Assembly (NCBI GenBank): GCA_903844645.1
Contig: CAIMUP010000013.1
Coordinates: 1,428-65,427 of the forward strand
DNA: 64,000 nucleotides
Direction: 5' to 3'
Source: an uncultured Bacteroidota bacterium
GTDB taxonomy: Bacteria; Bacteroidota; Bacteroidia; AKYH767-A; JABDAW01
Shown piece by piece: positions 9,077 through 45,259 of this stretch. The notes beneath the pieces are model-generated. The model worked only from the letters and a program-made list of their open reading frames with translations, had not been told where the DNA came from and searched no databases. Each line of letters starts with the position of its first letter. Positions within the stretch are counted from its first letter, which is position 1. The translations under genes and the position numbers were made by a program.

Positions 9077-9712
9077 ATGTCTAACCTACTACCAGGCACA
9101 CCGATAAAAGCAAGTCGCAAATTCATGACTTTCGGAAGAGTAAAGCTTATTGCTGAATATGAATTAGTGAAAACGGGAATGACCAGTCCTGCCGGCATCG
9201 GTCATTATGCAAATCCTACGGTTGCATTCGCCACCATGGACCCTATCAAGCAGGCAATTACTGATGCCTATAACTTAAAAGATAAGGTAACGATGCGGGC
9301 AAGGATCAAGGATTTGAAAGATGACATGCGCAAGAACGCGACTTTTGCTGAAGAACATTGTAACAACGACCTCGCCACGTTGTTATTGAGCGGTTACAAA
9401 GAAGCTCAACAGGGTGGTGGTCCTGAAATAGCCATTGGCGGCACTACTAATTTGAAAGCTGGCGATACAGGAATTGTTGGCGAAATGAAAGGAACTTACA
9501 GAAGACCAGCTGGAACGAAACATGTCGAGGGATGGAGCAAGTTACACAGTGCTCCGGAAACTGCCTGGGCATTGACTGCTGTGACAGATGTCGGAGAAAT
9601 CTTCTGGACAGGCGTAGCGAAAGGTGTGGAAAACGATTACAAAGTTCGTAGTGGTGCCGGTCGCAGAAAAGGTGCATTCAGTTCGGTAGTTACCGAGATT
9701 TGCAGGTATTAA
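9077..9712 (+). CDS. hypothetical protein (no recognisable domain; shares a YANP..AF.T motif with ORFs 29206 and 44324)
   Basis: 211-aa ORF with no signal peptide. Directly downstream of array C and followed by a terminator. Confidence 0.5.
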   Translation: MSNLLPGTPIKASRKFMTFGRVKLIAEYELVKTGMTSPAGIGHYANPTVAFATMDPIKQAITDAYNLKDKVTMRARIKDLKDDMRKNATFAEEHCNNDLATLLLSGYKEAQQGGGPEIAIGGTTNLKAGDTGIVGEMKGTYRRPAGTKHVEGWSKLHSAPETAWALTAVTDVGEIFWTGVAKGVENDYKVRSGAGRRKGAFSSVVTEICRY

Positions 9713-9735
9713 TTTAAGAATTAAATAAACAGGAA

Positions 9736-9778
9736 AGCCTTCGAATTGCAACATTCGGGGGCTTTTTAATTTCTATTT
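9736..9778. terminator. rho-independent terminator, shared by convergent genes
   Basis: AGCCTTCGAA-ttgcaaca-TTCGGGGGCT stem of 10 bp with 2 G-U pairs, followed by TTTTTAATTT. Confidence 0.55.
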
Positions 9779-10356
9779 GATGCCAATTTATCTTTCGCGA
9801 ATTCCATAATCTGCGGGAAGAACTCCTTGAATTCCTCGGCATATAAATCGTAATCTTTTTTTAAATCATGAATCGAAAGTTCCATCTTCGATTGGAATTT
9901 GGCACGGCGAGCCATCCCCGCCAACACCCGTTCCATCCCCTCGAAGTTAGCATAATTATAGAGCCAATTATATTCTATCATATACGGCATCATCCGCCGA
10001 ATACCTGCCGGAAGAATGGCATCCCTCGCAAGGACTATCTCGTAACAAGATTCGGAATAATCGCTTAATGAAATGTCGGAATAATCCCCCCAGTTCGCAG
10101 CCAGGAAATGGTCGTAGAAGATGTCAATAATCACCGGGGAATATTTGTGATACATCGGTCTCAACCGAACTTTTCCACGCTCCACAATAGGGTGCGTATC
10201 GGTGAATTCATCAATGCCGCGATGCAGTTCGATGCCTTTAATAATACCTACCGAATAACCATCGTAATGCTTGCCCACGACCTGGTCGGCAATAAAATTC
10301 CCAATCATTACTTCAGGGTCATCCCCCGAAAGGTAAAGATGAGCGAGAAAATTCAA
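9766..10356 (-). CDS. acpH: acyl carrier protein phosphodiesterase
   Basis: N-terminus MNFLAHLYLS is characteristic of AcpH. Length is 196 aa. Confidence 0.75.
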   Translation of the reverse strand: MNFLAHLYLSGDDPEVMIGNFIADQVVGKHYDGYSVGIIKGIELHRGIDEFTDTHPIVERGKVRLRPMYHKYSPVIIDIFYDHFLAANWGDYSDISLSDYSESCYEIVLARDAILPAGIRRMMPYMIEYNWLYNYANFEGMERVLAGMARRAKFQSKMELSIHDLKKDYDLYAEEFKEFFPQIMEFAKDKLASNRN

Positions 10357-10362
10357 TTGGAA

Positions 10363-10923
10363 TTACTTCACCTTTCCGCAGTAGCCGGAAGTGCGGGTAT
10401 CTATCTTAATAATCTCCCCGATATTCACGAAAAGCGGCACCTGAATCTCGGCACCAGTCTCCAGAGTAGCGGCTTTGAGGGTATTGGTAGCGGTGTTTCC
10501 GCGTTCGCCAGGCTCGGTATAGGTAACTTCTAATTCCACAAAAGTCGGCACATCGCCAATGATCGGGGTCTCGCCCTCGAAGGCTACTTTCACAATCATT
10601 TCTTCTTTGAGGAAACGAACATTTTCCCCGAATAATTCCTCGGGAATATGTACCTGTTCGTAAGTTTCATTATCCATACAAACCAAGTGCTCACCTTCTT
10701 TGTAGATGAATTGCAGTTCCTTGTATTCCATCCTGACCAGCTCCACTTCCTCGCCAGATCGGAAGCGATATTCTGCCGATTTGCCGGTCTTTACATTCTT
10801 CATTTTAGCTTGATAGAAAGCACGAAGATTTCCCGGAGTCCGGTGTTGGTATTCGGTTATTACGCACAATTCGCCGTTGAATCTAATGACCGATCCGAGA
10901 TGAATATCTGATGTTGTTGCCAT
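10363..10923 (-). CDS. efp: elongation factor P
   Basis: 186 aa. KPGKG-like loop region (YQHRTPGNLRAFYQAKMKNVKTGK). The overall EF-P domain pattern is present. Confidence 0.93.
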   Translation of the reverse strand: MATTSDIHLGSVIRFNGELCVITEYQHRTPGNLRAFYQAKMKNVKTGKSAEYRFRSGEEVELVRMEYKELQFIYKEGEHLVCMDNETYEQVHIPEELFGENVRFLKEEMIVKVAFEGETPIIGDVPTFVELEVTYTEPGERGNTATNTLKAATLETGAEIQVPLFVNIGEIIKIDTRTSGYCGKVK

Positions 10924-11009
10924 AGTCTTTATTAAATATAAATTATTATTAAGGGCGGCAAAAATAGGAAAAGGATTTGAGAATGGAATTCGGGCAGTGC
11001 AAATGGTTA

Positions 11010-12275
11010 TTAATTGTTGTTGGATTTTGTTTTAGAATAATGATGCTTCAAGAAAACAAACCAGGCAATGAGTGTACATACCGCCCCCAGCCACATCGTG
11101 AAACTAATCAGTTGAGCCACTACGAAACCCGCTAATATCGGGGGAATGGCTGATGATAGCGAGATGATGCTTTGGTTGATGCCGATGATCTCTCCCTGGA
11201 TTGTTTTATCTGTTGAATTAGAGACGATGGCAAGGGAATTAGGATAGACGAATCCTTGGAATATCGGCAGGAATGGGAACCAGATAAGCGTCATGATGAA
11301 GTCAGTAGGGATGAGCATCAACAGATAACTCAACGCAAAGACGGGCATGAAGATGAGCATGGCGCGTTCCGGCGTGAAATATTTGGTAATCGGGCGGATG
11401 AGGATGCCTTGCGTGATGCCCACCCAGAGGCTGAACCAGGCAATGACATAGCCTAATGTCTTGACATCGAAATCGAACTTTATCTTGGCATATTCCTGAT
11501 AATAAATAATGAAAAAAGCGAAGCCGAGATTCATCAAGAAGATGACAGCGAAGATGTTCTTGAGGTCAGCATTGCGAAAGGCTGTCCTTACATTCCGGAA
11601 GCCTGTAAGAGGAGAAATAATGCTGTCGGGATTGCTGTGAATCATGTCAGGGAATTTAATCAGAAGGAAAATAACATTGGCTAAGGAAAGCAAAGCGATG
11701 AAGAAAAAGGGAGTTGCGAAATTGAACCAACTGACAATGGAAGGGTCAGATAAAAGCCCGCTGCATATAGCTCCTACGATGAATCCCATGCCGAAGCCAA
11801 CGCCGACTAATCCGAAGTTCTTTGCCTTGTTTTCATCCGTACTGTAATCTGCTATGGCAGATTGAACCACCGGCAAACTTGTTCCGCCTAAGCCCGCCAA
11901 AGTCCTTGCGGTGAGCAGTATATAATATTCTTTAAGATAGATTCCAAGCGCGAAAAGCAAGTAGCAAAAGATATTCACAGTGAAGGCAAAAGCGATGACT
12001 TTCTTTCTCCCTATCCTATCCGATATGGCTCCGAGAATAGGTGCTCCGATGAATTGTCCCAGCGACCAGAAGCCCGCCATCAGCCCGAACTTCAAGGTCT
12101 TTTCTGATAATGGAACGGAGGAAGCGAAGATGCTTTGCTTGGCATCGAAATAGATGGAAGCAAAGATCGGGAACGCTACTCCCATCGCGAAATAGTCAAT
12201 GAAGACGGTGAGGAAAATGATGAACAGCGAGAGGTTTGTGTTTTTGTTATTTGGAGAGGATGTTAGCATTGGCAT
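11010..12275 (-). CDS. MFS transporter (drug:H+ antiporter-like)
   Basis: 12 TM segments. MFS signature GAISDRIGRKK sits between TM2 and TM3. Confidence 0.8.
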   Translation of the reverse strand: MPMLTSSPNNKNTNLSLFIIFLTVFIDYFAMGVAFPIFASIYFDAKQSIFASSVPLSEKTLKFGLMAGFWSLGQFIGAPILGAISDRIGRKKVIAFAFTVNIFCYLLFALGIYLKEYYILLTARTLAGLGGTSLPVVQSAIADYSTDENKAKNFGLVGVGFGMGFIVGAICSGLLSDPSIVSWFNFATPFFFIALLSLANVIFLLIKFPDMIHSNPDSIISPLTGFRNVRTAFRNADLKNIFAVIFLMNLGFAFFIIYYQEYAKIKFDFDVKTLGYVIAWFSLWVGITQGILIRPITKYFTPERAMLIFMPVFALSYLLMLIPTDFIMTLIWFPFLPIFQGFVYPNSLAIVSNSTDKTIQGEIIGINQSIISLSSAIPPILAGFVVAQLISFTMWLGAVCTLIAWFVFLKHHYSKTKSNNN

Positions 12276-13794
12276 AATGTTTTTTGTTATGGATTAAATA
12301 ATTCAATTGGTACAAAGAGAATTTAGAATTACTCCAAAGCAAAAGAGGCTTATCGGGATAAATCATTAGGAATTTTTTTGTAGAATCATCGGGGAGGTCG
12401 GTGCAGGTCAAGAGGTATTGAACATTGTACTTCAAATTATTATATGCAATGCTTTCTAATGATTGATTGGCACATAAAATTGTTCGGCGATCAGTATAGA
12501 GATTCAATGCCCTTGGCTTGTTGAATGCAATTTTTGCATCCATCGGAGTATTCCTTTTTATATATTCAAATGCTTCGACAGCTTCTGCTTCCTGCGGTCC
12601 TGGCAAGGTTTCGTTTTGATGTCGGATGATGTTGATGGCACTGAATGAATAAGGAATCAGGATGAATAAGCCGAGAGAAAGGATGATGATATTCTTCTTG
12701 AGTGGGGAATTAATCTTCACCATCATTAAACCAATTACAGTATAATAAATAAGGATGGGAAAGACAGGAAATAAGAATCGCATTCCTGAATTCATATCGG
12801 GATAAAGCAGGAGCGCAAAGAGATAGATGATGACGAAGAAGTCAATGAAATCAACCTTCCTGAAACATTTCTTCAGGAAGCCGATGGTGGTAAATAGCAC
12901 CACCAGCCATTGTGTAAGGATGGCGAGTAAAGGGAATACACCTCCGCCAGACATGAAGAAATATCTGAACGAATGGAGGTAATAACTTGCCTTCATTCGC
13001 AAGATAGGAAAGGATATTGAAGCGAAGTATTCACTGCCGATACCTATTTTAAACAATGCCTTAAAGTCTATCAATACAAACACTATCGTGATGGTGATGA
13101 CTAATGCTCGCTTCATTATTTCAAGTTTTATAGCATTGTTTCTTCTGTTTTTCCATAAGGATATGATGTCTTCAAGAATCAAAGCGGCAAGCAGCACAAT
13201 GCCGATGGTTCGGATGGAAATAAGGATGCCGAGAAGCAATCCGGTAAGGAGATATTTCAATGTCTTGTTTCCTTTTGTCTTTGAATAAACAAGGATCACA
13301 AGGATCAGGAATAAGGTGAATGGAATATCAGACATGATCTCCTCTTTGAAGTTCAAAGTGAAGGGATTATAGGCGAAGATCAGGACTAACAAGATGGAGA
13401 CAAGATCGCTGAAATGCTTGCGGTAGAAGGAAAAGAGTGCTATGCAGAGCAGGAATAGGATAAATGTAACAGTGATGACAAATCCTTTTATACTATTCCC
13501 AACATACAGACAAGTCATTGCCAGGATGAGTGGGAAACCCACAGGACGAGCGGAGATATGCACTCCCGGACTTCTTATATCATCAATGAATCCCGTCGCT
13601 GATTGCGGAATTCCTTTGGTGATGTTTATCGCTTGATGAATGTATTGCGCGAAGTCGTCGCCCCAGTCGTGGCTGTTGCGGATATTGATGAAGAACAAGG
13701 GAATACAGAGGGCATACACAAGTGCAGATGCCATGAACTTCCTCTTAAACAACTTATCCATGATAATCTTGCTCGGCATTGACATTCCAGACAT
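12247..13794 (-). CDS. GT-C fold membrane glycosyltransferase-like protein (ArnT/PMT family-like); start uncertain
   Basis: The first 350 aa are multi-TM, with an acidic DWGDDFAQY motif in the first loop. A soluble C-terminal domain follows. It overlaps the neighbours at both ends, so the true start is probably internal (MDKLFKRKF). Confidence 0.45.
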
Positions 13795-15334
13795 TTTCTT
13801 TCGTCGTGATGTCCGCGATAATATTGTCCACGGCGGTCATGGCGCAGAGCATGGAATGGTCTTGGTTGTTGTATTTGTGCATTCCATTGCGACCGATGAG
13901 GAAAAGATTTTGAAAGGCATCGGTGAAAGTTTTAATCTCCTCAAAACGATCGTAAGTACCAAAGTATGCGGGGTAACTTTTCTTCTCTTTGATGATGATT
14001 GCATCGAGAACATCGGAAGCATCAATGAAACCAAGCTGTTGCAATTCGGCGGTAGCAAAAGCTCTCATATCTTCATCCGATTTATTCCACAACGCATCGC
14101 CTTCATCGCAGAAATAATCCAAGCCCAGCCATACTTTCGAGGTGTCATGCAGCATATAGGGACTGAAATTATTATACACCACTATCCGCCCCAGCATTAC
14201 GTTTGGTTCCTGGACATAGATCCAATTATCAGCGATTAAACTCTTGCCATCGCTGTTCTTATAATTCAACTTATTCAACAATAATCCGACGGATATAAAA
14301 TCGCGATAGATAAGACCGCCGGCTACCTCGCTGACATTAGCAGGTACATCCTGCATTGCCGCAATAAGTTGCTTGACGGGCATAGTGGAGAAGAAGTAAT
14401 CGCCATCATAAATTATTTCTTCGGCATTATCAGAAGTGCCGTCGTCAGTAGCTTTGATGGATGTTATGTTATTCCCCGAAGCAATTATCGAAGTAACATT
14501 TTTATTAAAATGTATCGCTCCGCCTTTCGCCAAAATGATACTGGCTACTTCGTCCCACATCTGCCCGGTGCCGAGTTTCGGATAGAGGAAATGCTCGGTG
14601 ATATGTTCATCGGATGTTGAATTATTAATCCCAATAATTTTCTTTAAAGCATGAATAAAAACTTTGGTAACCGATAAGCCCTTGATGCGTTGCGCGCCCC
14701 ATTCCGGCTTGATTTGGTCGCAGGGCACGCCCCAAACCTTCTCGGTATAGTCTTTAAAGAATGTTACATATAGCTCTTTGCCAAAGCGATTAATCAAGAA
14801 ATCTTGTAGCGAGGACTCTTTGCTGATCGGGAATAATTTCACGAGTAGATAACTCCAGAGAATCTTTGAAATCCGCACCAGTCCCAGGTTTCTGATCATT
14901 TCCATACCGAGCGAGACGGGATAAGAGAAGAAACTATGTAGATAAAATATCCGCGTAAAGCGATCTTTAATCAACAGCACTTTATCTTCCGTCAGCGGAT
15001 CGGGACCGGTGGCGGAGAGCGGTATCTTGCGCTTATTATTTTGATAAGAAATCTCAATATCATTTTGGTTAATGCCCTCAATTCCCTGCAACGGCAGGAT
15101 ATTCAGCCACCAGTTCATCACCCGGTCAGATTTTGAGAAGAAGCGATGCGGACCGATGTCTATGCGGTTGCCTTTATAATTAATGGTCTTCGCAAGTCCG
15201 CCCACAACGCTACTTTTTTCTAATATTATCGGCATGATGTCGGTACGCATGAGGAGTTCGTAGGCGGCGGTCAGTCCGGCAGGACCGGCACCGATGATGA
15301 TAGCAGTTTTTTTCTTTCCCTTAATGTCTTCCAT
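13754..15334 (-). CDS. FAD/NAD(P)-binding oxidoreductase (amine-oxidase/phytoene-desaturase-like fold)
   Basis: N-terminal dinucleotide-binding motif [17 protein letters not shown], then GGLAKT...IDIGPHRFF. Length is 526 aa. It sits at the head of the oxidoreductase-GT-MFS gene string. Confidence 0.65.
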
Positions 15335-15544
15335 GATGGTGGCAAAGAAAGGAAATTCGTGGGGCAGGGATGGAAAACTTTTTTTTCAGAGAATTGTATT
15401 TCTCCACTATTTTTAGTATCATTGCAACCTCGAACAAAAAATGAAGCCTCAAAACACATATAATAATCTCGCAAATCTCTCCAATAATTTTGGAGGTGGG
15501 GCTTGCATATTAAATAGAGTTTGTGTAAACTCGAAGCCGCCTCA

Positions 15545-15577
<33 letters not shown>

Positions 15578-15659
15578 CAAATTTTTTGAAATAACCAAAT
15601 CGGAGAACACTTTTTCTGGTTCGGTTCAAAAAATTTCGTTTTCCTTTTCTAATCTTTCA

Positions 15660-15945
15660 TTAAAGTTTCCAAAAATTTCCGCGATTTTTCAGGAATCTTG
15701 GTCAAGTCGCCAGAGTTTTGACCAAAGTTTCATACGCCCCAGCCAAAGTGTGCCGAACTTCAGCCAAAGTTTTGGAAACTTTGACCAAAGTCCAGCGACT
15801 TTGACCAAAGTAGATGAAGATTCGGTTGAGGTTTCTGAAACTTTGACCAAAGTGGGCTTCACCGTGGTCAAAGTTTCTGCTTTCTCGCCCAAAGTTTCCG
15901 GAAATTCCTCCAAAGTTTCCCAAAAATCCCCCAAAGTTTCTGAAA
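15660..15945. repeat. degenerate 21-bp periodic array (about 13 copies) with a conserved CCAAAGT core
   Basis: CCAAAGT occurs at 15722, 15743, 15764, 15785, 15805, 15847, 15867, 15889, 15909 and 15930. The spacings are 20 to 22 bp, or 42 bp where one copy is missing. Confidence 0.7.
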
Positions 15946-16076
15946 CTTCGGGACCTGTAGGAAGAATATTGGCTGTAAATCAGTCCATTTCTTTCCTGAC
16001 TTCGATTTTCGAGGTCCTTTTACAAAATCCCGCTAACGGAATCCAAATAGAAATTTAATAACTTAATAAATAAACT

Positions 16077-16778
16077 ATGATCATAAATTACAGAGGTCCT
16101 TACAAAGCGGCTACGCTTGACGGGCAAATTGACCAAATCCGAATCATCGGAGTAAAAATGGGAACGTACAAATTAACGTTGGACCTTCTCCAACCGAACA
16201 TTGACCGGGTGAACAACACCTACCTGATGCTTAAATATGTCGATGGCTGCGAAAACAGCGTGGACGGCTACAAAAAAAATCTGAACGATTACAAGCATGA
16301 ATTGTTGAGCGGCGACAAGGCGCATCAGATGAATGCGTTCCCCGTGATGGAGGCGTTTGCCACCGCCCCTGCCGCTACCAAAGGCGGTATTTGGCATTTT
16401 ATCGAAAGCCAACGGAGCATCATGATGGAGCATGATAATTGGACGGACGGCATCGGCGAAGACATGCACCTTTTAGGTCCGATGCGCCAGTTGGATTCTA
16501 ACCTTTATGTGCCCGAAGTGAGGCTGAAAGTGCGAGCCGGAGTTATCGAAGCGATTACCGATTCGGCGATTATCACGAATCATAAACTCTATGTCGGACC
16601 GCAAGGCATTGACCCGATTCCGTTTATCACCGATTTTAAAGGTGCTAAATACGAATATCACCGCACCATCGCGCCCCCGACGACTTCCGAAAAGCTGAAT
16701 GTAATGATTCGCGGCATGTTCGATAATGAAATTATAGGGCACGATTCGGCAATCGTACAGATAGCTTATAAAGGATAA
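16077..16778 (+). CDS. hypothetical protein
   Basis: 233-aa ORF with no recognisable motif. It is followed by a hairpin terminator. Confidence 0.5.
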   Translation: MIINYRGPYKAATLDGQIDQIRIIGVKMGTYKLTLDLLQPNIDRVNNTYLMLKYVDGCENSVDGYKKNLNDYKHELLSGDKAHQMNAFPVMEAFATAPAATKGGIWHFIESQRSIMMEHDNWTDGIGEDMHLLGPMRQLDSNLYVPEVRLKVRAGVIEAITDSAIITNHKLYVGPQGIDPIPFITDFKGAKYEYHRTIAPPTTSEKLNVMIRGMFDNEIIGHDSAIVQIAYKG

Positions 16779-16818
16779 TCTGATGAGTGAAATCCTCCCC
16801 ATTCCGCAAGCTGAAATA

Positions 16819-16852
16819 CCTCCTATTAATATAGGAGGTGTTTCGGTTTTGA
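16819..16852 (+). terminator. rho-independent terminator
   Basis: CCTCCTA-ttaata-TAGGAGG hairpin at 16819-16838, followed by a TGTTTCGGTTTTGATT T-rich tract. Confidence 0.55.
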
Positions 16853-17018
16853 TTCGTGAAATGAGGAAAGAAATTATGGAGGATGAAAATTATACGGAGG
16901 AAGTGGGAATGAATTTTAAATTAATAGGGAAAGAAATAGAGGAGGAAAAATGATGACATAAAAAAAGAGAAACTAAAAACACAAACCATGAATAATGGTA
17001 ATATTATAAGCCTAAAAA

Positions 17019-17065: not shown

Positions 17066-17125
17066 CAAGATAAAAGGGATATGCTAATGCCCTAACCAAG
17101 TAGGCGAAACTAAAAAATTAATCTT

Positions 17126-28052: not shown

Positions 28053-28646
28053 ATGCATTCATACGACGATGATGGTATTAAATACGACCATCCATACCAT
28101 TCTCTGAAAGAGTATCTTTGCATCCTTAATAATAATAAAGGTATGAAGATAAATTTTATATTGGATGGGTTCGATTTTGATGATACCCACCAGGCTCATC
28201 AGGTGTTTGAGAATATTGGGCAAGAGATGGGGAGGGTAATTACCGATAAATTGCGCCATTTGGTGGGCTTTCAGGATGAGCATGGTCAGTTTGGCGGCAC
28301 GATAGAGATTCATGCGAGCATTCATGGTCCTGATTTGAACAAAGCAGATACCGCCCAATATAATAAGGAGTACGATTACTATTTTGATGTTCAGGATGCA
28401 GACCATATTGTGGTCGTTCCGAAGAAAAAAGGTGGTACCAATCCTGATAATATTACCAAAACGGAGAAGACTTATCTGCAAGAAATGATTGATGGTACTT
28501 CCAATAAAATTATTGCTGATGATCATGACAAAAATATAGAAACGGTGAAGTCAAACAAGAAAAGTATTCGATTTAAGACTAAATGCAAGACTCCGGGGGA
28601 CTTGAAAAAATACGTTGATAAACATAAACTCTTATTAAAAGAATAA
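28053..28646 (+). CDS. hypothetical protein (alternative start MKINF at 28143)
   Basis: ORF with no recognisable domain, rich in charged residues. Confidence 0.4.
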   Translation: MHSYDDDGIKYDHPYHSLKEYLCILNNNKGMKINFILDGFDFDDTHQAHQVFENIGQEMGRVITDKLRHLVGFQDEHGQFGGTIEIHASIHGPDLNKADTAQYNKEYDYYFDVQDADHIVVVPKKKGGTNPDNITKTEKTYLQEMIDGTSNKIIADDHDKNIETVKSNKKSIRFKTKCKTPGDLKKYVDKHKLLLKE

Positions 28647-28855
28647 TTCACCCTTTTGAGGGATTGTTTTAGGAACTAATACCTTGTAATTTTGCATCCT
28701 TAATTACAAACAATGGATCATTACAATCACATAGCGAATACAACGGATAGCAATCACGACAGAGGCAATGCTTCTGGAAGGTTTTTCAATGGTGGCGGTA
28801 GTGATATGGATACAAATTGTAGTTTAAACATATGCCAAAAAAACTCAAACATATC

Positions 28856-29095
28856 TTTTAGTAACAATAAGATACCTTTTAGTAACAATAAGATACCTTT
28901 TAGTAACAATAAGATACCTTTTAGTAACAATAAGATACCTTTTAGTAACATAAAGATATGTTTTAGTAACAAAAAGATACCTTTTAGTAACAAAAAGATA
29001 CCTTTTAGTAACAAAAAGATACCTTTTAGTAACAAAAAGATATGTTTTAGTAACAAAAAGATACCTTTTAGTAACAATAAGATATGTTTTAGTTT
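28856..29095. repeat. 21-bp tandem repeat array D, about 11.5 copies, unit TTTTAGTAACAATAAGATACC
   Basis: Units at 28856, 28877 and onward through 29066. Variants are AACAAAAAG and GATATG. Confidence 0.95.
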
Positions 29096-29205
29096 TTCTC
29101 ACCATAGTAAAAGCAATAGTTGCTATGGTGATGGGTCTTTTCAGAATGCCCACCCCTCTCCCTTGTATTCAAAACCAAGTAGTAACATAATAAAATAACA
29201 ATAAA

Positions 29206-29973
29206 ATGAGTCTATTAAAATTAGTATTAGTAAAAATTTCTATCTTCATGATCATCACGAAGGCTTCCATCATGAGGCAGTACCTTTTAGATTGTGTCAG
29301 TGCGGGTTCTGCCTCCACTTTGTATGCCAATCCGGCTATTACCACTGCCTTTTATACCTCGATGACGAATGCTGCGGCTGCCATTCAGACAGCGGTAACA
29401 GTTTGTGCGGCGAACAACACGAAGGCAAACAGGGATGCCATTAAAGATGCTATCGCAGCAGGAAAAGTGGTCGCGGCAAGCTATGCTTCGCAAGTTCAGG
29501 TGATTGCCAATCTCCCTATTAATGCCGCTACCCGCGAGGCAGCAAAGACAAATATTGAACAATCGCATCTGACGGCACAAAAATTAAATCAAACAACCAT
29601 AGGAATACCCGAAACCCCTGTATTAACGGGCGAAAATAACGGCATCGGCAAGATAAAAGTAAAGGTTACCAATCCTGGCGTATCGTATGACCCTAAAACT
29701 ATTATTTTTGTTGCTGTTTCCCTGCCCATAGTGCCTGTAACGGTGCCGCCAACACCTCCTCCGGCTGACCCCGTAGTTACGCTCATAGCAGGACAAGTGA
29801 TGGTAAAGACTTCCGTGGCATGCGAAGTGATAACCATCACCCAGGATGGCAAAGGAAGAGAGGTAGATTTGGTTGGATTGACTGCCGGCACTCGCTTTTC
29901 CATCTCTGCCTACACAAAAAATGGCAATAAATTGGTGAGCGTATTGTCGAACGCTATTATCGTACAGGCATAA
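29206..29973 (+). CDS. hypothetical protein (YANP..AF.T motif; Pro-rich PVTVPPTPPPADPVV segment)
   Basis: 255-aa ORF directly downstream of array D. Confidence 0.5.
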   Translation: MSLLKLVLVKISIFMIITKASIMRQYLLDCVSAGSASTLYANPAITTAFYTSMTNAAAAIQTAVTVCAANNTKANRDAIKDAIAAGKVVAASYASQVQVIANLPINAATREAAKTNIEQSHLTAQKLNQTTIGIPETPVLTGENNGIGKIKVKVTNPGVSYDPKTIIFVAVSLPIVPVTVPPTPPPADPVVTLIAGQVMVKTSVACEVITITQDGKGREVDLVGLTAGTRFSISAYTKNGNKLVSVLSNAIIVQA

Positions 29974-30044: not shown

Positions 30045-30272
30045 ATGAGAAAAATAACCTTAGAGTTACCTGATTCTGTTGAATTAAATGACCAAGAAGT
30101 GGCATTATTAGTAGCCGCAAGTTTCTATGAACATGGAAAACTTTCATTAGGACAAGCCGCCGAACTGGTAGGTCTATCCAAACGGGCTTTTATGGAAGTA
30201 TTGGGCAAGTATGGAGTATCTATATTTAATTATCCTGCCTCCGACCTGTCGAGAGATGTAAAGAATGCATAA
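30045..30272 (+). CDS. UPF0175-family antitoxin
   Basis: 75 aa. The pattern LELPDSVELNDQE...LSLGQAAELVGLSKRAFMEVL is typical of UPF0175. Its 3' end overlaps the downstream PIN-like gene by 8 bp. Confidence 0.7.
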   Translation: MRKITLELPDSVELNDQEVALLVAASFYEHGKLSLGQAAELVGLSKRAFMEVLGKYGVSIFNYPASDLSRDVKNA

Positions 30273-30720
30273 AACAATAGTCTCGGACACGAGTTGTTTT
30301 ATCATCTTTACTAATATTGGGGAATTAGATTTGCTATTTCAGACTTATGGGCAGATAATTACTACCAAAGAAGTCGCTTTAGAATACGGCGAAGAGCTTC
30401 CTGATTGGGTAATTATCAAAGAAGCTAATGATAAAGACTTTCAACATAACCTGGAGAAGAAAATTGATAAAGGAGAAGCCAGTGCCATTGCCTTAGCAAT
30501 AGAAATTATGGATTGTACCATCATTCTTGATGATTATAAAGCCCGGCAAGTGGCAGAACAATTGGGTCTTGATATCACAGGAACGATAGGTGTTATCATT
30601 AAAGCAAAATTAAATGGAATAATACCTTCTATTATACCCTATCTGGATAAAATTAGTAAGACAGATTTCAGAATAACGGATGAACTTAAAGAACAAGCCC
30701 TCACAGAAGCTGGAGAATGA
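30265..30720 (+). CDS. DUF3368-family PIN-like toxin
   Basis: 151 aa. N-terminal IVSDTSCFI has the PIN-like acidic residue. The pairing with UPF0175 is a known type II toxin-antitoxin arrangement. Confidence 0.7.
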   Translation: MHKTIVSDTSCFIIFTNIGELDLLFQTYGQIITTKEVALEYGEELPDWVIIKEANDKDFQHNLEKKIDKGEASAIALAIEIMDCTIILDDYKARQVAEQLGLDITGTIGVIIKAKLNGIIPSIIPYLDKISKTDFRITDELKEQALTEAGE

Positions 30721-34659: not shown

Positions 34660-34862
34660 TTAATACCCCTATTTTTCCCAATGTACACGTGTACAATTCG
34701 TCCTGCAACTGTGTCGGAGGCAATGTTCGGTGTACTTTGCCCCAACACAGTTGTGTTTGCCAATTCTACATGTGTACTATTGGCAAACACAGTTACTTTT
34801 GCAGAAGTACACGTGTAGAATTGGCAAACACAACTGTGTTTGCCAAATGTACACGTGTACAT
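34660..34862. promoter_or_regulatory. cluster of long palindromes in a divergent promoter region
   Basis: TGTACACGTGTACA is a perfect 14-bp palindrome at 34672 and again at 34838. TTGGCAAACACAACTGTGTTTGCCAA is a perfect 26-bp palindrome at 34822-34847. AATTCTACATGTGTACT and AGTACACGTGTAGAATT form inverted repeats at 34753 and 34806. Confidence 0.6.
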
Positions 34863-35292: not shown

Positions 35293-35323
35293 CCGACTTC
35301 CCTTTTATAAAACAAGATATAGT

Positions 35324-37846: not shown

Positions 37847-37867
37847 GTTGAATATTTCATTCCAAAA

Positions 37868-37909
37868 GAAAGCCCTCCCGACATAAAATTGGGAGGGCTT
37901 CTTTTTTTA
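37868..37909 (+). terminator. strong rho-independent terminator after yfhO-like gene
   Basis: AAGCCCTCCC-gacataaaatt-GGGAGGGCTT perfect 10-bp stem followed by TTTTTTT. Confidence 0.85.
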
Positions 37910-37950
37910 GCTAAAAGGACGATTTGGGAAGCCCGAAAAATTTTTCCGCT

Positions 37951-38200
37951 ATGAATATCTTTTGCTTCGGGATGAATATCCTTTGCTTCGGGATGAATAT
38001 CCTTTGCTTCGGGATGAATATCCTTTGCTTCGGGGTGAATATCTTTTGCTTCGGGGTGAATATCTTTTGCTTCGGGATGAATATCCTTTGCTTCGGGATG
38101 AATATCCTTTGCTTCGGGATGAATATCTTTTGCTTCGGGATGAATATCTTTTGCATCGGGATGAATATCTTTTCATCCGGCTTCAATACATTTTCATCCC
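37951..38200. repeat. 21-bp tandem repeat array E, about 12 copies, unit GCTTCGGGATGAATATCCTTT
   Basis: Read directly. Variants are GGGGTGAATATCTTTT. Confidence 0.95.
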
Positions 38201-38358
38201 GGGTTAATGTCTTACATGAACTTTTCCCCGTTATAAAACCCGATTTGGAGGGGTAAAAAGGGAGGTTTTTGGAAATTCTCCACCCTCCATTTCCCACTTT
38301 TAAGTCTCCATTCCCCATTTTCCATTCCCCATTCTTTTTCCATTGTCAGGAAATTTTA

Positions 38359-38366
38359 TAGTTTTG
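38359..38366 (+). promoter_or_regulatory. -7 element TAGTTTTG upstream of the PPIase operon
   Basis: Matches TAnnTTTG, 33 bp upstream of the ATG at 38399. Confidence 0.45.
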
Positions 38367-38398
38367 CCCGCCTAACACTAAAATTATATCATAAAATA

Positions 38399-40354
38399 AT
38401 GAAAAAAATAGCAGTAAATTTTTTAATCTTAACCATCGCGATAGTAGCTACCATCGCCCTCAAAGCCCAAGGCAATGACCCGTTATTAATTACCATCGGG
38501 AATGAAAAAATCACCAAGTCGGAGTTTGAAAAGGTCTTCCGCAAAAACAACAGCAAAGGCAACCCGTCAGATCAAAAAGCCGCTGCCGATTACCTTGAAC
38601 TGTTCGTCAATTATAAATTGAAGGTCAAGGAAGCCTGCGAAATCGGGATGGATACCGCCAGCACCTTCGTAGCCGAATTGCAGGGATATAAAAAACAATT
38701 GTCCACCCCCTACCTCGTGGATAAAGAAGTTACCGACAAGCTCATGCACGAGGTTTATGACCGCATGAAAAAAGATGTTCATGCCGCCCATATCCTTTTC
38801 AAATGCCCCTCCGATGCGTTGCCCAAAGATACCCTTGAGGCTTATAACAAGGCGATGACGGTACGTATCCATTTAATAAAAGGAGAAGATTTTGCAAAGG
38901 CAGCACGCGAGAACTCTGACGATCCTTCTGCCAAAGAAAATGGCGGAGATTTAGGATATTTCTCTGCCATGCAAATGGTTTATCCGTTTGAATCAGCCGC
39001 CTTCAATGCCAAGGTAGGCGAGGTTTCGATGCCTACCCGCACTAAATTTGGTTATCATTTAATAAAAAAATTAGACGAACGGAAAGACCCGGGAGAAGTA
39101 ACCACGGCACACATCATGGTCAAGATAGCCAAAGATGCGAAGCCTGAAGATTCGACCAAAGCAGCGCAGAAGGTTGCGGAATTAGTTCAGAAATTAAAAG
39201 ATGGCGGCAACTTCGAGGAACTCGCCAAACAATATTCTGATGATGGCGGATCGAGCAAAAATGGCGGCGTTTTGCCAGCCTTCAAAACAGGTCGCATGGT
39301 TCCGGAGTTCGAGGCAGCAGCATTTAATTTGAAGAACAAAGGCGACATATCGGATCCCGTTCGGACTTCTTATGGCTGGCATATAATAAAATTAATCAGC
39401 CGTAAAGACATCGGCAGCTACGACGAAATGCAAACCGAATTGAAAGCCAGTATTGGCAAAGATTCGCGGTCAGAGGTCAGCAAGTCGTCCATGATTGCGA
39501 AGATTAAAAAAGAATATAATTTTAAACAAGACACCAAGACCCGCGATGAGTTTTTTGCTGTTTCCGATTCATCATTGATTAATGGCAAGTGGACTTCTGA
39601 TAAAGCCGAAAAACTGACAAAAACCATGTTCACCTTAGGCGATAAACAATTTACCCAAAAGGATTTCGCGACCTACATCGTTGCCCACCAAACGGCACGG
39701 AAGAATACCACGCCCCAAGCTATCGTGAACGGCATGTATGAATCTTATGTCAGCGAATCCGCGATGACTTACGAGGAGAATCGGTTAGATGTCAAATACC
39801 CTGAATTTAAAGACCTGATGCAAGAGTACAAGGACGGCATCCTCCTTTTTGATTTGACCGATAAAAAAGTATGGTCCAAGGCTGTCAAGGATACTGTCGG
39901 CATGAAAGAATATTATGAAAAGAACAAAATAAAATACCAGTGGGGCGAACGCGTACAGGCTACCATCTACAATTGTTCTTCCGAAGAAATGACCGGAAAA
40001 GTACGGGAGTTAATCAAGAAGAAAACATTGAGCAACGACTCTATCTTGGCTATCATAAACACCACCTCCCAGTTGAATCTTTCTATCAAGGAAGGGAAAT
40101 ATTCCAAGGGCGATAATCAGTTTGTTGATTCCATCAAATGGCAGAAAGGATTGTCGCCGAATGTTGTTTCCGGCAAGTCCTTTGTCTTTGTGGATGTGAA
40201 AGAAAAGCTCGCCGCCACCGGTAAAACATTGGAGGAAGCAAAAGGACTTGTTACCGCCGATTATCAGGCAGCTTTGGAGAAAGAATGGATCGCTACATTG
40301 CGAGCCAAATTTCCATTTACGGTCGATCGGAACGTGTTGGCAACGATTAAATAG
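38399..40354 (+). CDS. peptidyl-prolyl cis-trans isomerase, parvulin/PpiC-type (PpiD/SurA-like, 651 aa)
   Basis: Signal peptide present. Two parvulin-like segments (AHILFKCP..., FGYHLIKK..., GWHIIKLI). Confidence 0.75.
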   Translation: MKKIAVNFLILTIAIVATIALKAQGNDPLLITIGNEKITKSEFEKVFRKNNSKGNPSDQKAAADYLELFVNYKLKVKEACEIGMDTASTFVAELQGYKKQLSTPYLVDKEVTDKLMHEVYDRMKKDVHAAHILFKCPSDALPKDTLEAYNKAMTVRIHLIKGEDFAKAARENSDDPSAKENGGDLGYFSAMQMVYPFESAAFNAKVGEVSMPTRTKFGYHLIKKLDERKDPGEVTTAHIMVKIAKDAKPEDSTKAAQKVAELVQKLKDGGNFEELAKQYSDDGGSSKNGGVLPAFKTGRMVPEFEAAAFNLKNKGDISDPVRTSYGWHIIKLISRKDIGSYDEMQTELKASIGKDSRSEVSKSSMIAKIKKEYNFKQDTKTRDEFFAVSDSSLINGKWTSDKAEKLTKTMFTLGDKQFTQKDFATYIVAHQTARKNTTPQAIVNGMYESYVSESAMTYEENRLDVKYPEFKDLMQEYKDGILLFDLTDKKVWSKAVKDTVGMKEYYEKNKIKYQWGERVQATIYNCSSEEMTGKVRELIKKKTLSNDSILAIINTTSQLNLSIKEGKYSKGDNQFVDSIKWQKGLSPNVVSGKSFVFVDVKEKLAATGKTLEEAKGLVTADYQAALEKEWIATLRAKFPFTVDRNVLATIK

Positions 40355-40405
40355 CAATAAATCGCTGGGCTTGTCGTTAGCTTTTCTTAATCCAATAGAA
40401 CTACA

Positions 40406-41251
40406 TTGTTCAGAATCATTTTTTGCTGCTTAATCATTTCTCTGATGACCTCCTGTTCCTATTTCAAACATAACGACGGCAATGCCGCTGTGGCAAAGGC
40501 TTTCGATGCTACTTTGAATCGGGCTGATGTCGCGGGATTGGTGCCGAAGGGCAGCTCCAAACAGGATAGTGTGATGATAGTGAAGAGCTATATTGACTCT
40601 TGGATTCGGAAGGAATTGGTATTAAGAAAAGCCGAGAAAAACCTCTCCGATGAGGCGAAGGATGTAGAGAAACAATTGGCAGATTATAAGAATTCTTTGA
40701 TAATTTATGCTTATGAAAAGGAACTGGTTCGCCAGCAATTAGATACCACGGTGAAGGATGCGGAGATCGAAAAATATTACAACGAGCACCAGGGAAATTT
40801 TGAATTAAAGGATAATATTATCAAGGTTTTGTACCTTAAATTACCGAAGACTGCGCCGAGACTTTATACCGTGAGGCAATGGTATAAATCCTCCAAGGCG
40901 AATGACCGGAAGTCGCTTGAGGACTATGCGCATCAGTATGCCGTGAATTATTATTTCGATGATAATTCGTGGTTGCAATTCGATGATTTATTAAAAGAAA
41001 TTCCGATTAAAACCTACGATAAAGAGCAGTTCTTGAAGAACAACCGGTATGTCGAAATCGAGGATTCGATGAATCTGTATTTCGTCAATATCAACGGCTT
41101 CAAAACTAAGGAAAGTACCTCGCCGCTCTCGTTTGAAAAGGATAATATCAAGAGCATTATTATCAATAAAAGGAAGCTGAAATTGATTGAGGATATGGAG
41201 AAAAAGGTGTACGACGAGGCGGTGAAGGGCAGCGATTTCAAGATTTATTAA
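40406..41251 (+). CDS. lipoprotein in the PPIase operon (SurA-N-like chaperone domain?)
   Basis: Lipobox SLMTSC. About 280 aa. Confidence 0.5.
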   Translation: MFRIIFCCLIISLMTSCSYFKHNDGNAAVAKAFDATLNRADVAGLVPKGSSKQDSVMIVKSYIDSWIRKELVLRKAEKNLSDEAKDVEKQLADYKNSLIIYAYEKELVRQQLDTTVKDAEIEKYYNEHQGNFELKDNIIKVLYLKLPKTAPRLYTVRQWYKSSKANDRKSLEDYAHQYAVNYYFDDNSWLQFDDLLKEIPIKTYDKEQFLKNNRYVEIEDSMNLYFVNINGFKTKESTSPLSFEKDNIKSIIINKRKLKLIEDMEKKVYDEAVKGSDFKIY

Positions 41252-41281
41252 TAAAATGGACAAAAAGATGCTTTTTCTATT

Positions 41282-41444
41282 AAATACGACTACAATGATG
41301 CCGTCATCTCCTACAATGATAGCGTCATCTACTACAATTATGCCGTCATCTACTACAATTATGCCGTCATCTACTACAATGATGGCGTCATCTACTACAA
41401 TTATGCCGTCATCTACTACAATGATGGCAACTTCGACTACACAT
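41282..41444. repeat. 21-bp tandem repeat array F, about 7.5 copies, unit ATGCCGTCATCTACTACAATT
   Basis: Read directly. It lies between two co-directional operon genes, with 16 bp before the surA-like start. Confidence 0.95.
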
Positions 41445-41459
41445 TTATTACATTAATTC

Positions 41460-42830
41460 ATGAAAATAATCAAAAATATAACGGGAATTTTTTTCTGCAT
41501 CGCGCTGCTGAATTCCATTGATACCGTGGCGCAGGTGAAAATTCTGGATCAAGTAGCAGGGGTGGTCGGGGATAAGGTGATTCTGCAATCCGACATCGAA
41601 TCGCAATATCAGCAATATATGCTCCAAGGCGGGGTGGATAATCCAGCCATTCGCTGCGAAATTATGTATCAGATGTTGATTAATAAACTGCTCCTGAATC
41701 AAGCAATATTAGATAGCGTAGAAGTTTCGGGCACGGCTGTAGAGGAGGAATTGGATAAACGGATGCGGTATTATATCTCCCAAATCGGCTCGCAAAAGTT
41801 GCTGGAGGAACGTATGGGAAAATCGGTATTGGAGCTGAAAGCCGACTTCAGAACGCTGATTAAAGACCAGATGCTGACGCAACAAATGCAACAAAAAATT
41901 ACGAAAGATGTGAATGCCTCGCCATCGGATGTGAAAAGTTATTACGAACACATCCCGAAGGATAGTTTGCCGAGGGTAGAATCGGAATTTGAGATACAAC
42001 AAATCGTTCGGCATATAGAAGTTACCGATGAGCAAAAAAAGGAAGTGAAGGATAAATTGGAAGGTTATAAACAAGAGATTTTGAAGGGTACTCGGGACTT
42101 TGTCGCCACTGCCGTTTTATACTCTCAAGACCCCGGTACTACTAAAAAAGGCGGTGAATTAGGCTTCTTCGGGAGGGGCGATATGCAACCTGCTTTTGAG
42201 GCTGCCGCATTCCGCCTTCGTCCGGGTGAAATATCGGATATTATTGAAACGCCGTTCGGGTATCACATCCTGCAATTGATTGAAAGAAGGGGCGAACAGA
42301 TTAATGTCAGGCATATCTTATTACATCCAAAAGTAAGCGATGATAATATTGACAAAGCGAGTAAATTTTTGGATAGTTTGAAGACGGAAATTAATAATAA
42401 AACCATCACCTTTGCCGATGCGGCGATGAAATTCTCTGATGATGCAGATACCAAGAACAATGCCGGACTGATGCAAAATGTGCAGGATGGAACAACCAAA
42501 TTTGAGGCTACCACGATGGATAAAACCCTGTTCTTCCAGATAGATAAATTGAGCATCGGGGAGCTATCGAAGCCTGTATCTTATTCTGACAGAGAGGGCA
42601 AGGCTTCGTTGCGGGTATTGATGGTGAAATCGAAAACAGCTCCGCATACCGCGAACTTGAAAGACGATTATCAGAAGATTCGCGGGGCGGCTTTGCAGGA
42701 GAAACAGAACCTCGCCTTGCTGGATTGGGTGAAGAAGAAGCGTGCTAATACGTTTGTGAATATCACGAAAGATTATCGCAAGTGCGATGCCATAAAGGAC
42801 TGGTTGAAGAATACCGCAACAACGAATTAA
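41460..42830 (+). CDS. surA: chaperone SurA-like peptidyl-prolyl isomerase
   Basis: Signal peptide present. SurA N-terminal domain followed by a parvulin domain (FGYHILQLIERRGEQINVRHILL). Confidence 0.7.
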   Translation: MKIIKNITGIFFCIALLNSIDTVAQVKILDQVAGVVGDKVILQSDIESQYQQYMLQGGVDNPAIRCEIMYQMLINKLLLNQAILDSVEVSGTAVEEELDKRMRYYISQIGSQKLLEERMGKSVLELKADFRTLIKDQMLTQQMQQKITKDVNASPSDVKSYYEHIPKDSLPRVESEFEIQQIVRHIEVTDEQKKEVKDKLEGYKQEILKGTRDFVATAVLYSQDPGTTKKGGELGFFGRGDMQPAFEAAAFRLRPGEISDIIETPFGYHILQLIERRGEQINVRHILLHPKVSDDNIDKASKFLDSLKTEINNKTITFADAAMKFSDDADTKNNAGLMQNVQDGTTKFEATTMDKTLFFQIDKLSIGELSKPVSYSDREGKASLRVLMVKSKTAPHTANLKDDYQKIRGAALQEKQNLALLDWVKKKRANTFVNITKDYRKCDAIKDWLKNTATTN

Positions 42831-42848
42831 ATAAGAAAAATTAAGACT

Positions 42849-43817
42849 ATGGATATAAAATTTAACTCCGATGTAGAAGCAGTGGATTCCCTGGTGGGGA
42901 CTTACAAGGACCTTCGCAAAGAAATTGGGAAAGTGATTATCGGGCAAGACGATATTGTGAAGGATGTGCTGATCTCTATCTTCGGGCAGGGACATTGCTT
43001 GCTGGTGGGTGTGCCGGGCTTGGCGAAGACGCTGTTGGTGAATACGATTGCGCAGACGTTAGGCTTGACGTATAACCGGATTCAGTTTACGCCTGACTTG
43101 ATGCCGAGTGATATTATCGGGACGGAAATATTGGATGAAACTCGTAAGTTTCGGTTTATTAAAGGACCGTTGTTTGCGAATATTATCCTTGCCGATGAGA
43201 TTAACAGAACTCCACCAAAGACTCAGTCGGCGTTGTTGGAGGCGATGCAGGAACGGACTGTTACTGCTGCCGGAACGCGGTATGATTTGGGGAAGCCGTT
43301 CTTTGTGTTGGCGACGCAAAACCCGATTGAGCAGGAGGGGACTTACCCGTTGCCGGAGGCGCAATTGGATAGGTTTATGTTTAATGTGTGGTTGGATTAT
43401 CCAAAATTTGAGGAGGAGATACAGGTGGTGAAGAATACGACCTCGAATTATAAACCGGAGTTAAAAGTTATTATTCATGGGGAAGAGATTGTGTATTTTC
43501 AGGACTTGGTGAGGAGGATTCCTATTGCGGATAATGTGTTGAATTATGCGGTAACCTTGGCGCAGAAGAGCAGACCGAATACGGCATTGGCTACGGAGAT
43601 GGTGAATACTTATCTGTCGTGGGGTGCTGGTCCGAGGGCTTCGCAGTATTTGGTGATTGGGGCGAAGGTGAACGCGATATTCAATGGGAAATATTCTCCT
43701 GATATTGAGGATGTGCAGGCGGTGGCGGCGGGTATTCTGCGGCATCGTATTGTATTAAATTATAAGGCGGAAGCTGAACGGGTTTCGGTGGAGAGCATTG
43801 TTAAAAGCCTTATTTAA
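42849..43817 (+). CDS. MoxR-family AAA+ ATPase
   Basis: Walker A GVPGLAKT and Walker B ILADEINR. The size is about 320 aa. Confidence 0.9.
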   Translation: MDIKFNSDVEAVDSLVGTYKDLRKEIGKVIIGQDDIVKDVLISIFGQGHCLLVGVPGLAKTLLVNTIAQTLGLTYNRIQFTPDLMPSDIIGTEILDETRKFRFIKGPLFANIILADEINRTPPKTQSALLEAMQERTVTAAGTRYDLGKPFFVLATQNPIEQEGTYPLPEAQLDRFMFNVWLDYPKFEEEIQVVKNTTSNYKPELKVIIHGEEIVYFQDLVRRIPIADNVLNYAVTLAQKSRPNTALATEMVNTYLSWGAGPRASQYLVIGAKVNAIFNGKYSPDIEDVQAVAAGILRHRIVLNYKAEAERVSVESIVKSLI

Positions 43818-43869
43818 GAGAAGAATCCGGGGGATTCAAATCAGTTTTTGGTGTCTGGAGCAGTTTAAC

Positions 43870-44163
43870 GGCTGTTGATTGGAGAAAGTCGGCTGTTGAT
43901 TGGGGAAAGTTGACTGTTGATTGGGGAAAGTCGGCTGTTGATTGGGGAAAGTCGGCTGTTGATTGGGGAAAGTTGACTGTTGATTGGGGAAAGTCGGCTG
44001 TTGATTGGGGAAAGTCGGCTGTTGATTGGGGAAACATGGACGTAGATTGGGGAAACATGGACGTAGATTGCGGAAACATGGACGTAGATTGGGGAAACAT
44101 GGAGGTAGATTGTAGAAACATGGAGGTAGATTGCAGAAACATGGAGGTAGATGGGTTTTACAC
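43870..44163. repeat. 21-bp tandem repeat array G, 14 copies in two blocks (GGCTGTTGATTGGGGAAAGTC x7, then GGACGTAGATTGGGGAAACAT x7)
   Basis: Units run from 43870 through 44143 in exact 21-bp steps. Confidence 0.95.
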
Positions 44164-44323
44164 TTAAAATGCCAATAATTTTAATACAAAATGCTTTGTT
44201 TTTTCTACTTTTCATTTAATTATATCAAAAAAAGCAAAACAATTTCTCCGAAAATTTGGCAGTTACAAGAAATTTTAGTTAATTTGCATCCATAATCTAA
44301 AAGATAGACTTAAAATAACAAAA

Positions 44324-45259
44324 ATGAATCACAGAGAACTCGCACAAATGGAAAGAAACGGAGGACTGTTTACGTTCCTCGCCTTGGCTTCGAGCCATAC
44401 AATTTATGACTCCAATGGCAACTTCGTCATTGAAAGGGATGGACAAGCCGCGAAACATGTTATTACGCTTGACAAAGCCTCGAAAGCGGGGATTGACAAT
44501 AAAGGTTTTAGCGCAGATAAATTGGAAAAGAAAAACCTTTTGGCGGATGAAGCAGCGTTGCTTTCGGGCTACGCATTCGTGAAATGGGGTCCTACTAAAT
44601 TGAACAAACCAGCCTTTGCTTTACAATGCCACACGTTTGCTACGGATTATTTAGGAATTGCCGATGTTGAATGTACCGCTCTTGCACAAGCTGCTCACGA
44701 TTTGATGTTCAATAATAGCGGCGACCTGACGGGTTATGTAGCCGCGGGGGATTTGACACATTTGCAAACAACGATCAACAACTTTACGGCTGCTGACGGC
44801 TCTTCGCAATCGGTGAATGCGGCATCGCCAGCGGATACGGCAGCATTTAAAACGGCATTGAGAAACGAAAATAAGTGTATTCCTGACCTCTTATTTATGG
44901 TGCGACCTTTTAAAACGATTAATAAAACTTTCTACGATAAAGTGGTTCTGTTGTGTGAATTGCCTGCCGTTTCAGTCTTACATACCGATGTGATCGTTAC
45001 GGTTTTGAAGACGGAAAATAATGAGGTGATAACGGATGCGCATGGGACACTTTCGAACACTAAAAAGACGGACGATACGGATATTCATGGGGAATTGGAA
45101 ATAGATGAAGTACATTCTGGCAAAGCCATCTTGACGATTACGCAACCGGATCGGGTAACGATTGTGGAAGAGATAACGATTCAAATAAAGCATGTGAATC
45201 ATTATACGGTACACATGACGCTGAAACCGGTGCCTCCGCCGATACCTCCGGTGGTTTAA
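44324..45259 (+). CDS. hypothetical protein (weak YANP-like motif NKPAFALQCHTFAT; C-terminal PVPPPIPPVV)
   Basis: 311-aa ORF directly downstream of array G. Two consecutive terminators follow it. Confidence 0.5.
   Translation: MNHRELAQMERNGGLFTFLALASSHTIYDSNGNFVIERDGQAAKHVITLDKASKAGIDNKGFSADKLEKKNLLADEAALLSGYAFVKWGPTKLNKPAFALQCHTFATDYLGIADVECTALAQAAHDLMFNNSGDLTGYVAAGDLTHLQTTINNFTAADGSSQSVNAASPADTAAFKTALRNENKCIPDLLFMVRPFKTINKTFYDKVVLLCELPAVSVLHTDVIVTVLKTENNEVITDAHGTLSNTKKTDDTDIHGELEIDEVHSGKAILTITQPDRVTIVEEITIQIKHVNHYTVHMTLKPVPPPIPPVV

Follow-up and report, generated by a model that had tools for sequence, protein, structure and literature searches.

Head-to-tail 21-bp arrays recur upstream of three orphan gene families in a Bacteroidota lineage

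The window analyzed here is a 64-kb stretch of chromosomal DNA from an uncultured Bacteroidota bacterium (contig CAIMUP010000013.1) and contains three open reading frames (ORFs), 9077-9712, 29206-29973 and 44324-45259, each of which follows a head-to-tail array with a period of 21 bp (arrays C, D and G, respectively; Table 1). The three genes and their arrays were found where a preliminary description of this DNA had placed them. The conserved linkage of all three gene families to such arrays is the real finding. A period-21 array (sometimes with a super-period of 42, 63 or 84 bp) was found directly upstream of the gene, ending 55-190 bp before the ATG, in 12/12 independent loci from other metagenomes or metagenome-assembled genomes (MAGs), which represent every orthologue or paralogue with DNA available. 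These loci belong to the 9077 family (L009, L011, L020 and L022), the 29206 family (L005, L006, L015, L017 and L024) and the 44324 family (L012, L014 and L023, the last cut by a contig end). The flanking genes vary from locus to locus, and no other array of four or more copies was found in about 50 kb of flanking sequence from the relatives' loci. The array-then-gene pairing proposed in the preliminary description is thus real, recurring in three families in other organisms, but its assignment to a single gene family is not upheld: arrays in the window also adjoin at least seven unrelated housekeeping genes (those for DUF4249, two rotamases, an aminotransferase, GNAT, DPP-IV and RibBA) and so are not specific to one family. 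The best explanation, about as likely as not, is that the three ORFs represent genuine, conserved genes that are confined to this lineage and belong to two or three separate families instead of one; an inherited, phased 21-bp cis element that sets their expression would unite them.

Regarding the relationship among the three proteins, all five peptide strings quoted in support of a three-way paralogy occur at their places in the translations. Pairwise BLASTP among the three yielded nothing (E > 2), and orthologue searches with each ORF retrieved its own small ortholog set, with no cross-matches between the three. Smith-Waterman scores compared with 500 shuffles corresponded to z = 1.6 (9077/29206), -0.1 (9077/44324) and 3.6 (29206/44324). 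The first comparison of the 9077 and 29206 family profiles aligned the N-terminal helical region in the register proposed earlier (YANP motif) with an E-value of 3.4e-4. The 9077 family profile compared with a 46-sequence 29206 profile gave an hhalign score of 31.6 (P 4.2e-4, probability 34%), which none of 200 column-shuffled profiles reached (mean 13.7, standard deviation 2.1, maximum 20.2), and the two N-terminal domains alone gave P 1.5e-4 (probability 51%). The two ORFs were also reciprocal best non-self hidden Markov model (HMM) matches among the 312 ORFs of the window, and they are probably remote homologues in the N-terminal domain. ORF 44324, by contrast, represents a separate family without detectable relation to the other two; its profile comparisons with both families were at chance (hhalign E 0.07-0.7, whole or by domain), and the library-wide search with the 29206 profile likewise returned no 44324-family proteins. 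The claimed paralogy is therefore supported in part: it is probable for the N-terminal domain of two of the proteins and not detectable for the third. The proline-rich segment described as shared by 29206 and 44324 is compositional. Masking of both proline runs reduced z to 1.3, and the run is a variable linker or tail that orthologues do not keep (absent in 2/4 members of the 44324 family and in many members of the 29206 family). The alignment of these two proteins pairs residues 34-191 with residues 160-311, not with the motif at residues 92-126 of 44324 that had been proposed.

The 9077 family has six orthologues with 62-67% identity and 93 invariant columns. ORF 9077 had no match in Pfam, NCBIfam or PHROGs, and a weak PADLOC match to PDC-M05B (E 0.002) was disregarded as an identification. 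For none of the three proteins did Pfam, NCBIfam, PHROGs or PADLOC indicate a meaningful function. The search with the 29206 profile among 1.84 billion representatives gave 75 HMM matches, approximately 60 of them full length. The AlphaFold2 (AF2) model of 29206 (mean predicted confidence, pLDDT, 73) shows helices over residues 11-129, including a long hairpin, followed by a beta domain. The C-terminal part of about 115 residues resembles fibronectin type III (FN3) proteins (PF00041) by profile (PDB profile, 5.8e-6) and by predicted fold (Foldseek FN3 matches with a target TM of up to 0.78); Pfam fn3 was matched in 6/44 members of the family, in all cases below threshold. The protein differs from FN3 proteins by the absence of a signal peptide and by its N-terminal helical domain, for which profile searches and Foldseek of the model yielded no relative in PDB, BFVD or Pfam. 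FN3 was not detectable in 9077 or 44324; the sole finding of the PDB profile searches with the three proteins was FN3 for 29206. The AF2 model of 44324 (pLDDT 36) was too poor for fold comparison. The 44324-family gene of L012 (3769-4678) was called with 225 aa only, and its upstream in-frame part (MTHRDIAQMRRN...) is apparently interrupted by a stop; it may be a pseudogene or reflect a sequencing error. Database matches showed that the same proteins as those of the window occur solely in metagenome assemblies and MAGs. Searches of viral contigs gave no relatives of the three proteins, and a viral origin was rejected on this ground.

Tandem Repeats Finder (TRF) detected about 12 head-to-tail arrays in the window, with a period of 21 bp or super-periods of 42 or 63 bp and a different unit in each array. 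All arrays of at least four copies, in the window as well as in the relatives, had a period of 21 bp or of a multiple of 21 bp. The best cyclic match between the units of orthologous arrays was 15-17/21 in the 9077 family and 15/21 in the 44324 family, compared with a maximum of 14/21 for shuffled units. The unit of array C matched that of L022 in 17/21 and that of L009 in 13/21 positions, the latter within the null maximum of 14/21; the match was 15/21 between array G and L012 and again between L012 and L014. The 15-mer TGCAGGGCGGTTTAG forms the left edge of array C and, without change, that of the L022 array, and its core TGCAGGGCGGT is common to the left edges of the arrays in the window, L009, L011 and L022. 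With units and left edge conserved within the 9077 and 44324 families, the arrays are thus inherited and constrained. The unit of array H, which lies elsewhere in the window, is identical in 19/21 positions to that of the 9077-family array of another organism (L020, 1-126), and each of the two has an inverted CCGACC copy at its end, a likeness suggestive of a common trans factor or of mobile arrays. Together with the conserved cores and edge, the match between array H and L020 points to a sequence-specific constraint. No motif shared between arrays was found beyond these within-family matches and the match between H and L020. The arrays are not clustered regularly interspaced short palindromic repeats (CRISPR), since the units are head-to-tail with no unique spacers, and a 7-bp unit or sub-period was rejected because cyclic self-matches at shift 7 were not enriched.

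Regarding the position of putative promoters, boxes resembling the Bacteroidetes-type -7 element (TnnnTTTGC) lie between array and gene at -37 in the 9077 family (L009, L011 and L022) and at -45 to -52 in the 44324 family (window -45, L012 -52, L023 -48). In the 29206 family, none was found between array and ATG in 6/6 loci; a -7-like box is located 93-160 bp upstream of the array in 4/6 loci, and conservation between the window and L015 covers this box and about 50 nt of leader. Because the box lies upstream of the array and none follows it, the arrays of the 29206 family are probably transcribed. The arrays thus lie in the putative promoter or leader region of the genes, but not on the same side of the putative promoter in all families, and on this point the preliminary description is not supported. 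Array D is traversed by ORF 28713-29198, which begins 26 nt past the -7 box and leaves 8 nt between its stop and the ATG of 29206. The N-terminus of its predicted product (MDHYNHIANT) is similar to that of the L015 counterpart (2613-2999; MFYNNHIAPT), and the repeat peptides are unrelated. One member of the 29206 family, P0039, was called with an N-terminal extension of KSKTSTP repeats, which is a translated array.

The 29206 family is further characterized by a regulator-like gene next to the array. In the window this position is held by ORF 28053, with a weak match to a helix-turn-helix (HTH) domain (Table 1), and in L005 (3059-3697), L006 (2924-3562) and L017 (2000-2635) by genes resembling sigma-70 regions 2 and 4 (r2/r4); a sigma-70-like or HTH gene precedes the array in at least four loci of the family. 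One MAG holds two modules (L016 and L017), each consisting of an array, a sigma-like gene and a family gene. Directly 3' of ORF 29206 in the window is a toxin-antitoxin-like pair (UPF0175/DUF3368, 30045-30720).

Array D comprises 11.8 units in the window and 9.6 units (two units, or 42 bp, fewer) in L018, another sample of the same species with an identical protein, whereas array G is identical in three assemblies (window, L001 and L002). The contigs L003 and L004 end inside array G. Many independent assemblies break inside arrays (including L003, L004, L019, L020 and L023), which makes the arrays a systematic cause of fragmentation for this lineage.

Most likely the arrays are helically phased cis-regulatory elements. 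Under the favored explanation, the 9077 and 29206 families would share an ancient N-terminal helical domain, to which the 29206 family would have added the C-terminal FN3 domain, with the 44324 family standing apart. Each gene would have been inherited with a head-to-tail array of 21-bp units, corresponding to two turns of the DNA helix, and each array may have been homogenized within its lineage by concerted evolution, with a conserved core and a conserved left edge being kept in the arrays of two families. Phased protein-binding sites or in-phase bends would then set the expression of the adjacent gene, from a position preceding the promoter in the families of 9077 and 44324 and from inside the transcribed leader, beside the gene for a sigma-like or HTH regulator, in the 29206 family. 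Slippage would add or remove units, and copy number may thereby tune expression.

Several observations weigh against this explanation. The 29206 profile search retrieved no 9077-family protein at E <= 0.001, and an hhalign probability of only 34-51% makes the link between these families a remote one that extends over the N-terminal domain only. The units are entirely different from array to array, also inside the 29206 family, and thus point to no single factor. Three arrays of the window fill intercistronic gaps, with only 31-33 bp to the next ATG, and two lie between convergent genes; a promoter role is unlikely for arrays in such positions. The difference in copy number of array D could be due to collapse in short-read assembly.

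Among the other explanations, the one advanced in the preliminary description, which unites the three proteins as distant paralogues in a single accessory family with one array per gene, appears unlikely. It would account for an otherwise rare array linkage common to all three families, and the Smith-Waterman alignment of 29206 with 44324 is collinear and takes in an ANPxxTxAF-like motif and the terminal proline run; the best hhalign match between the two, although non-significant, falls on the same motif. The signal is lost, however, on masking of the proline runs, half of the 44324 family lacks the proline tail, and 44324 does not rise above chance in profile comparison. It is rather doubtful that the arrays act by DNA shape alone, with in-phase bends every two turns producing curved or stiff DNA that recruits nucleoid proteins or insulates neighbors and requires no sequence-specific factor. 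The strict period in arrays with unrelated units, the occurrence of arrays in intercistronic positions and between convergent genes, and the lack of a 7-bp sub-period would all fit such a role, but unit cores and the array edge are kept across orthologues that are only 62-67% identical in protein, and array H shares 19/21 positions with an array of another organism. Quite unlikely, too, is the view of the arrays as neutral, slippage-prone minisatellites without function in permissive spacers upstream of dispensable genes. The window is indeed unusually rich in arrays, which have many unrelated genes as neighbors, contig ends often fall within them, and the units of the 29206 family are not conserved; against this stand the conserved cores and edge, the strict period and the same position being kept in all 12 loci despite shuffled synteny, with no further arrays in the flanks.

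Binding of the arrays by the product of the downstream gene, as in autoregulatory iteron/Rep or centromere/ParR modules, is decidedly improbable. In the 9077 and 44324 families, nothing but array and gene is consistently linked, and the length and phasing of the units are iteron-like, but Pfam, NCBIfam and PDB profile searches revealed no DNA-binding domain in the three proteins, the context is chromosomal (EF-P, Ffh, RibBA), many arrays lie beside housekeeping genes, viral contigs hold no relatives, and for the 29206 family a binding protein would more plausibly come from the separate sigma-like or HTH gene. Translation of the arrays, into heptapeptide repeats of leader ORFs or into N-terminal extensions, is extremely improbable, and a coding role was rejected because the encoded heptapeptides are unrelated between orthologous arrays. 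Open frames do run through every array; the one over array D extends from the box to near the ATG with a start resembling that of L015, and P0039 was called with its repeat extension. Several frames are, however, open on both strands, as expected of a 21-mer, and the conserved features are found at the DNA level.

Tandem repeats in promoters are known from contingency loci such as the TAAA tract of Neisseria nadA, and direct repeats next to a gene are also known from plasmid-type modules, in which iteron arrays adjoin Rep genes and centromere repeats (parC) are paired with ParR. Lineage-specific extragenic repeats with unknown or structural roles include the heptanucleotide short tandemly repeated repetitive (STRR) sequences of cyanobacteria and the repetitive extragenic palindromic (REP) sequences and bacterial interspersed mosaic elements (BIME) of enterobacteria. 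The arrays resemble contingency loci in having a head-to-tail tract shortly before a gene, on the far side of the promoter or within the leader, and in a unit number that slippage may change. They differ in having units of 21 bp (7-12 copies) instead of 1-7 bp and in being kept at orthologous loci whose proteins are only 43-67% identical; an expression switch would be putative here. Cases considered for comparison were the 7-bp repeats of Haemophilus influenzae hmw1A, a promoter or 5'-untranslated region (5'-UTR) contingency locus (PMC8262952), a simple sequence repeat (SSR) in a 5'-UTR (PMC12721329) and tandem-repeat copy number in M. tuberculosis (PMC12817950). With iterons and parC the arrays share direct repeats of about 20 bp, helically phased, beside a gene and with a module-specific sequence, whereas they differ by the chromosomal location, by their number in 64 kb, by the housekeeping neighbors and by the lack of a Rep, ribbon-helix-helix (RHH) or winged-helix domain in the adjacent proteins. 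Like STRR, REP and BIME elements they are lineage-specific extragenic repeats abundant between genes; in contrast to these, they have no 7-bp sub-period, direct instead of inverted copies, and a unit of their own in each array instead of a genome-wide consensus.

The remaining features of the window are as follows. Encoded proteins include type IX secretion system (T9SS) sorting domains, DUF4249, EF-P, Ffh and RibBA. The density of arrays is exceptional (approximately one period-21 array per 5-6 kb, with different units and unrelated neighbor genes). Other periods among longer-unit repeats were confined to REP-like repeats with palindromic units of 41-42 bp, located between convergent genes at 4111-4341 and between divergent genes at 34744-34861 (the latter with 2.8 copies) and carrying the inverted repeats CACATT...AATGTG and TTGCCAA...TTGGCA, respectively. 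A perfect (AC)14 dinucleotide tract was found at 15547-15574. The two sub-arrays of array L (61985-62078 and 62116-62200) are oppositely oriented (TGAAAGACTA / TAGTCTTTCA), and Rfam detected no FMN riboswitch at array L and ribBA; the Rfam and tRNA scans for known RNAs were empty. The gene for a TMTC-like O-mannosyltransferase with tetratricopeptide repeats (TPR; 58437-60386, minus strand) has an orthologue in L012 (1407-3619) with 64% identity, and in both cases it is followed by a period-21 array (58018-58151 in the window); the two arrays have unrelated units, and the genes beyond them are not the same. The peptidase of L006 is not orthologous to the DPP-IV of the window. Directly after ORF 44324, a YhcG/DUF1016 PDDEXK nuclease is encoded at 45350-46390 (PADLOC candidate PDC-S02, E 1e-133).

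Table 1. Arrays, putative promoter elements and associated genes in the 64-kb window
Feature	Position	Strand	Description	Method
Array A	1859..2044		Between outer-membrane beta-barrel gene and DUF4249 gene; 33 bp to next ATG	
Conserved left edge of array C	8694..8708	+	TGCAGGGCGGTTTAG	
Array C	8711..8919	+	10 copies of 21-bp unit (GGTCTGTTTAAAGTTTGTATC / ...TTTAAACA); 63-bp super-period	TRF
Bacteroidetes-type -7-like box	9039..9051	+	GTTCTTTGCCGCC; ~38 nt before ATG; putative promoter function	
ORF 9077	9077..9712	+	211 aa; orphan family; N-terminal helical region probably related to 29206 family	
ORF 28053	28053..28646	+	197 aa; weak C-terminal GerE/LuxR-type HTH match (Pfam GerE, E 2.5e-4, below curated cut-off)	
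-7 box	28687..28695	+	TAATTTTGC; 160 bp upstream of array D	
Array D	28847..29093	+	11.8 copies of AAAGATACCTTTTAGTAACAA	TRF
ORF 29206	29206..29973	+	255 aa; N-terminal helical domain and C-terminal FN3 domain (predicted)	
Array E	37951..38213		Upstream of PpiC-type rotamase gene	
Array F	41289..41426		33 bp before SurA-like rotamase gene	
Array G	43869..44152	+	~8 copies of CGGCTGTTGATTGGGGAAAGT, then ~6 of GATTGGGGAAACATGGACGTA	TRF
-7-like box	44279..44291	+	TTAATTTGCATCC; 45 nt before ATG	
ORF 44324	44324..45259	+	311 aa; separate orphan family, four members	
Array H	49949..50152	+	CGGTCGGATATTTCCTTTTTC; upstream of aminotransferase gene; 10 phased copies of GGTCGGAKATTT	
Array I	51563..51690		Between aminotransferase and GNAT genes; 31 bp to ATG	
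Array J	54568..54722		Between convergent genes	
Array K	58018..58151		Downstream of TMTC-like gene, upstream of DPP-IV (minus strand)	
Array L	61985..62200		Pair of sub-arrays with opposing orientation, upstream of ribBA (minus strand)	

Bacterial tandem repeats are usually short-lived, and the present arrays, with their strict period of two helical turns, are kept at the same genes in organisms whose proteins are 43-67% identical, with sequences homogenized per lineage. A description of such arrays was not found in the full-text literature searched. As a tentative extension that is less likely than not, this Bacteroidota lineage might use inherited, helically phased 21-bp arrays for regulation or chromosome architecture in general, each array co-evolving with the gene served or, in the 29206 family, with the adjacent sigma-like regulator, and the three orphan families being the oldest and most faithful clients; if true, bacteria would have a hitherto undescribed class of cis element. 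In practical terms, metagenome assemblies of this lineage repeatedly break because of the arrays. Should the arrays control expression, they would provide a functional clue for three orphan protein families and a new, easily recognized handle on gene control in the Bacteroidota, where promoters and regulators are poorly mapped.

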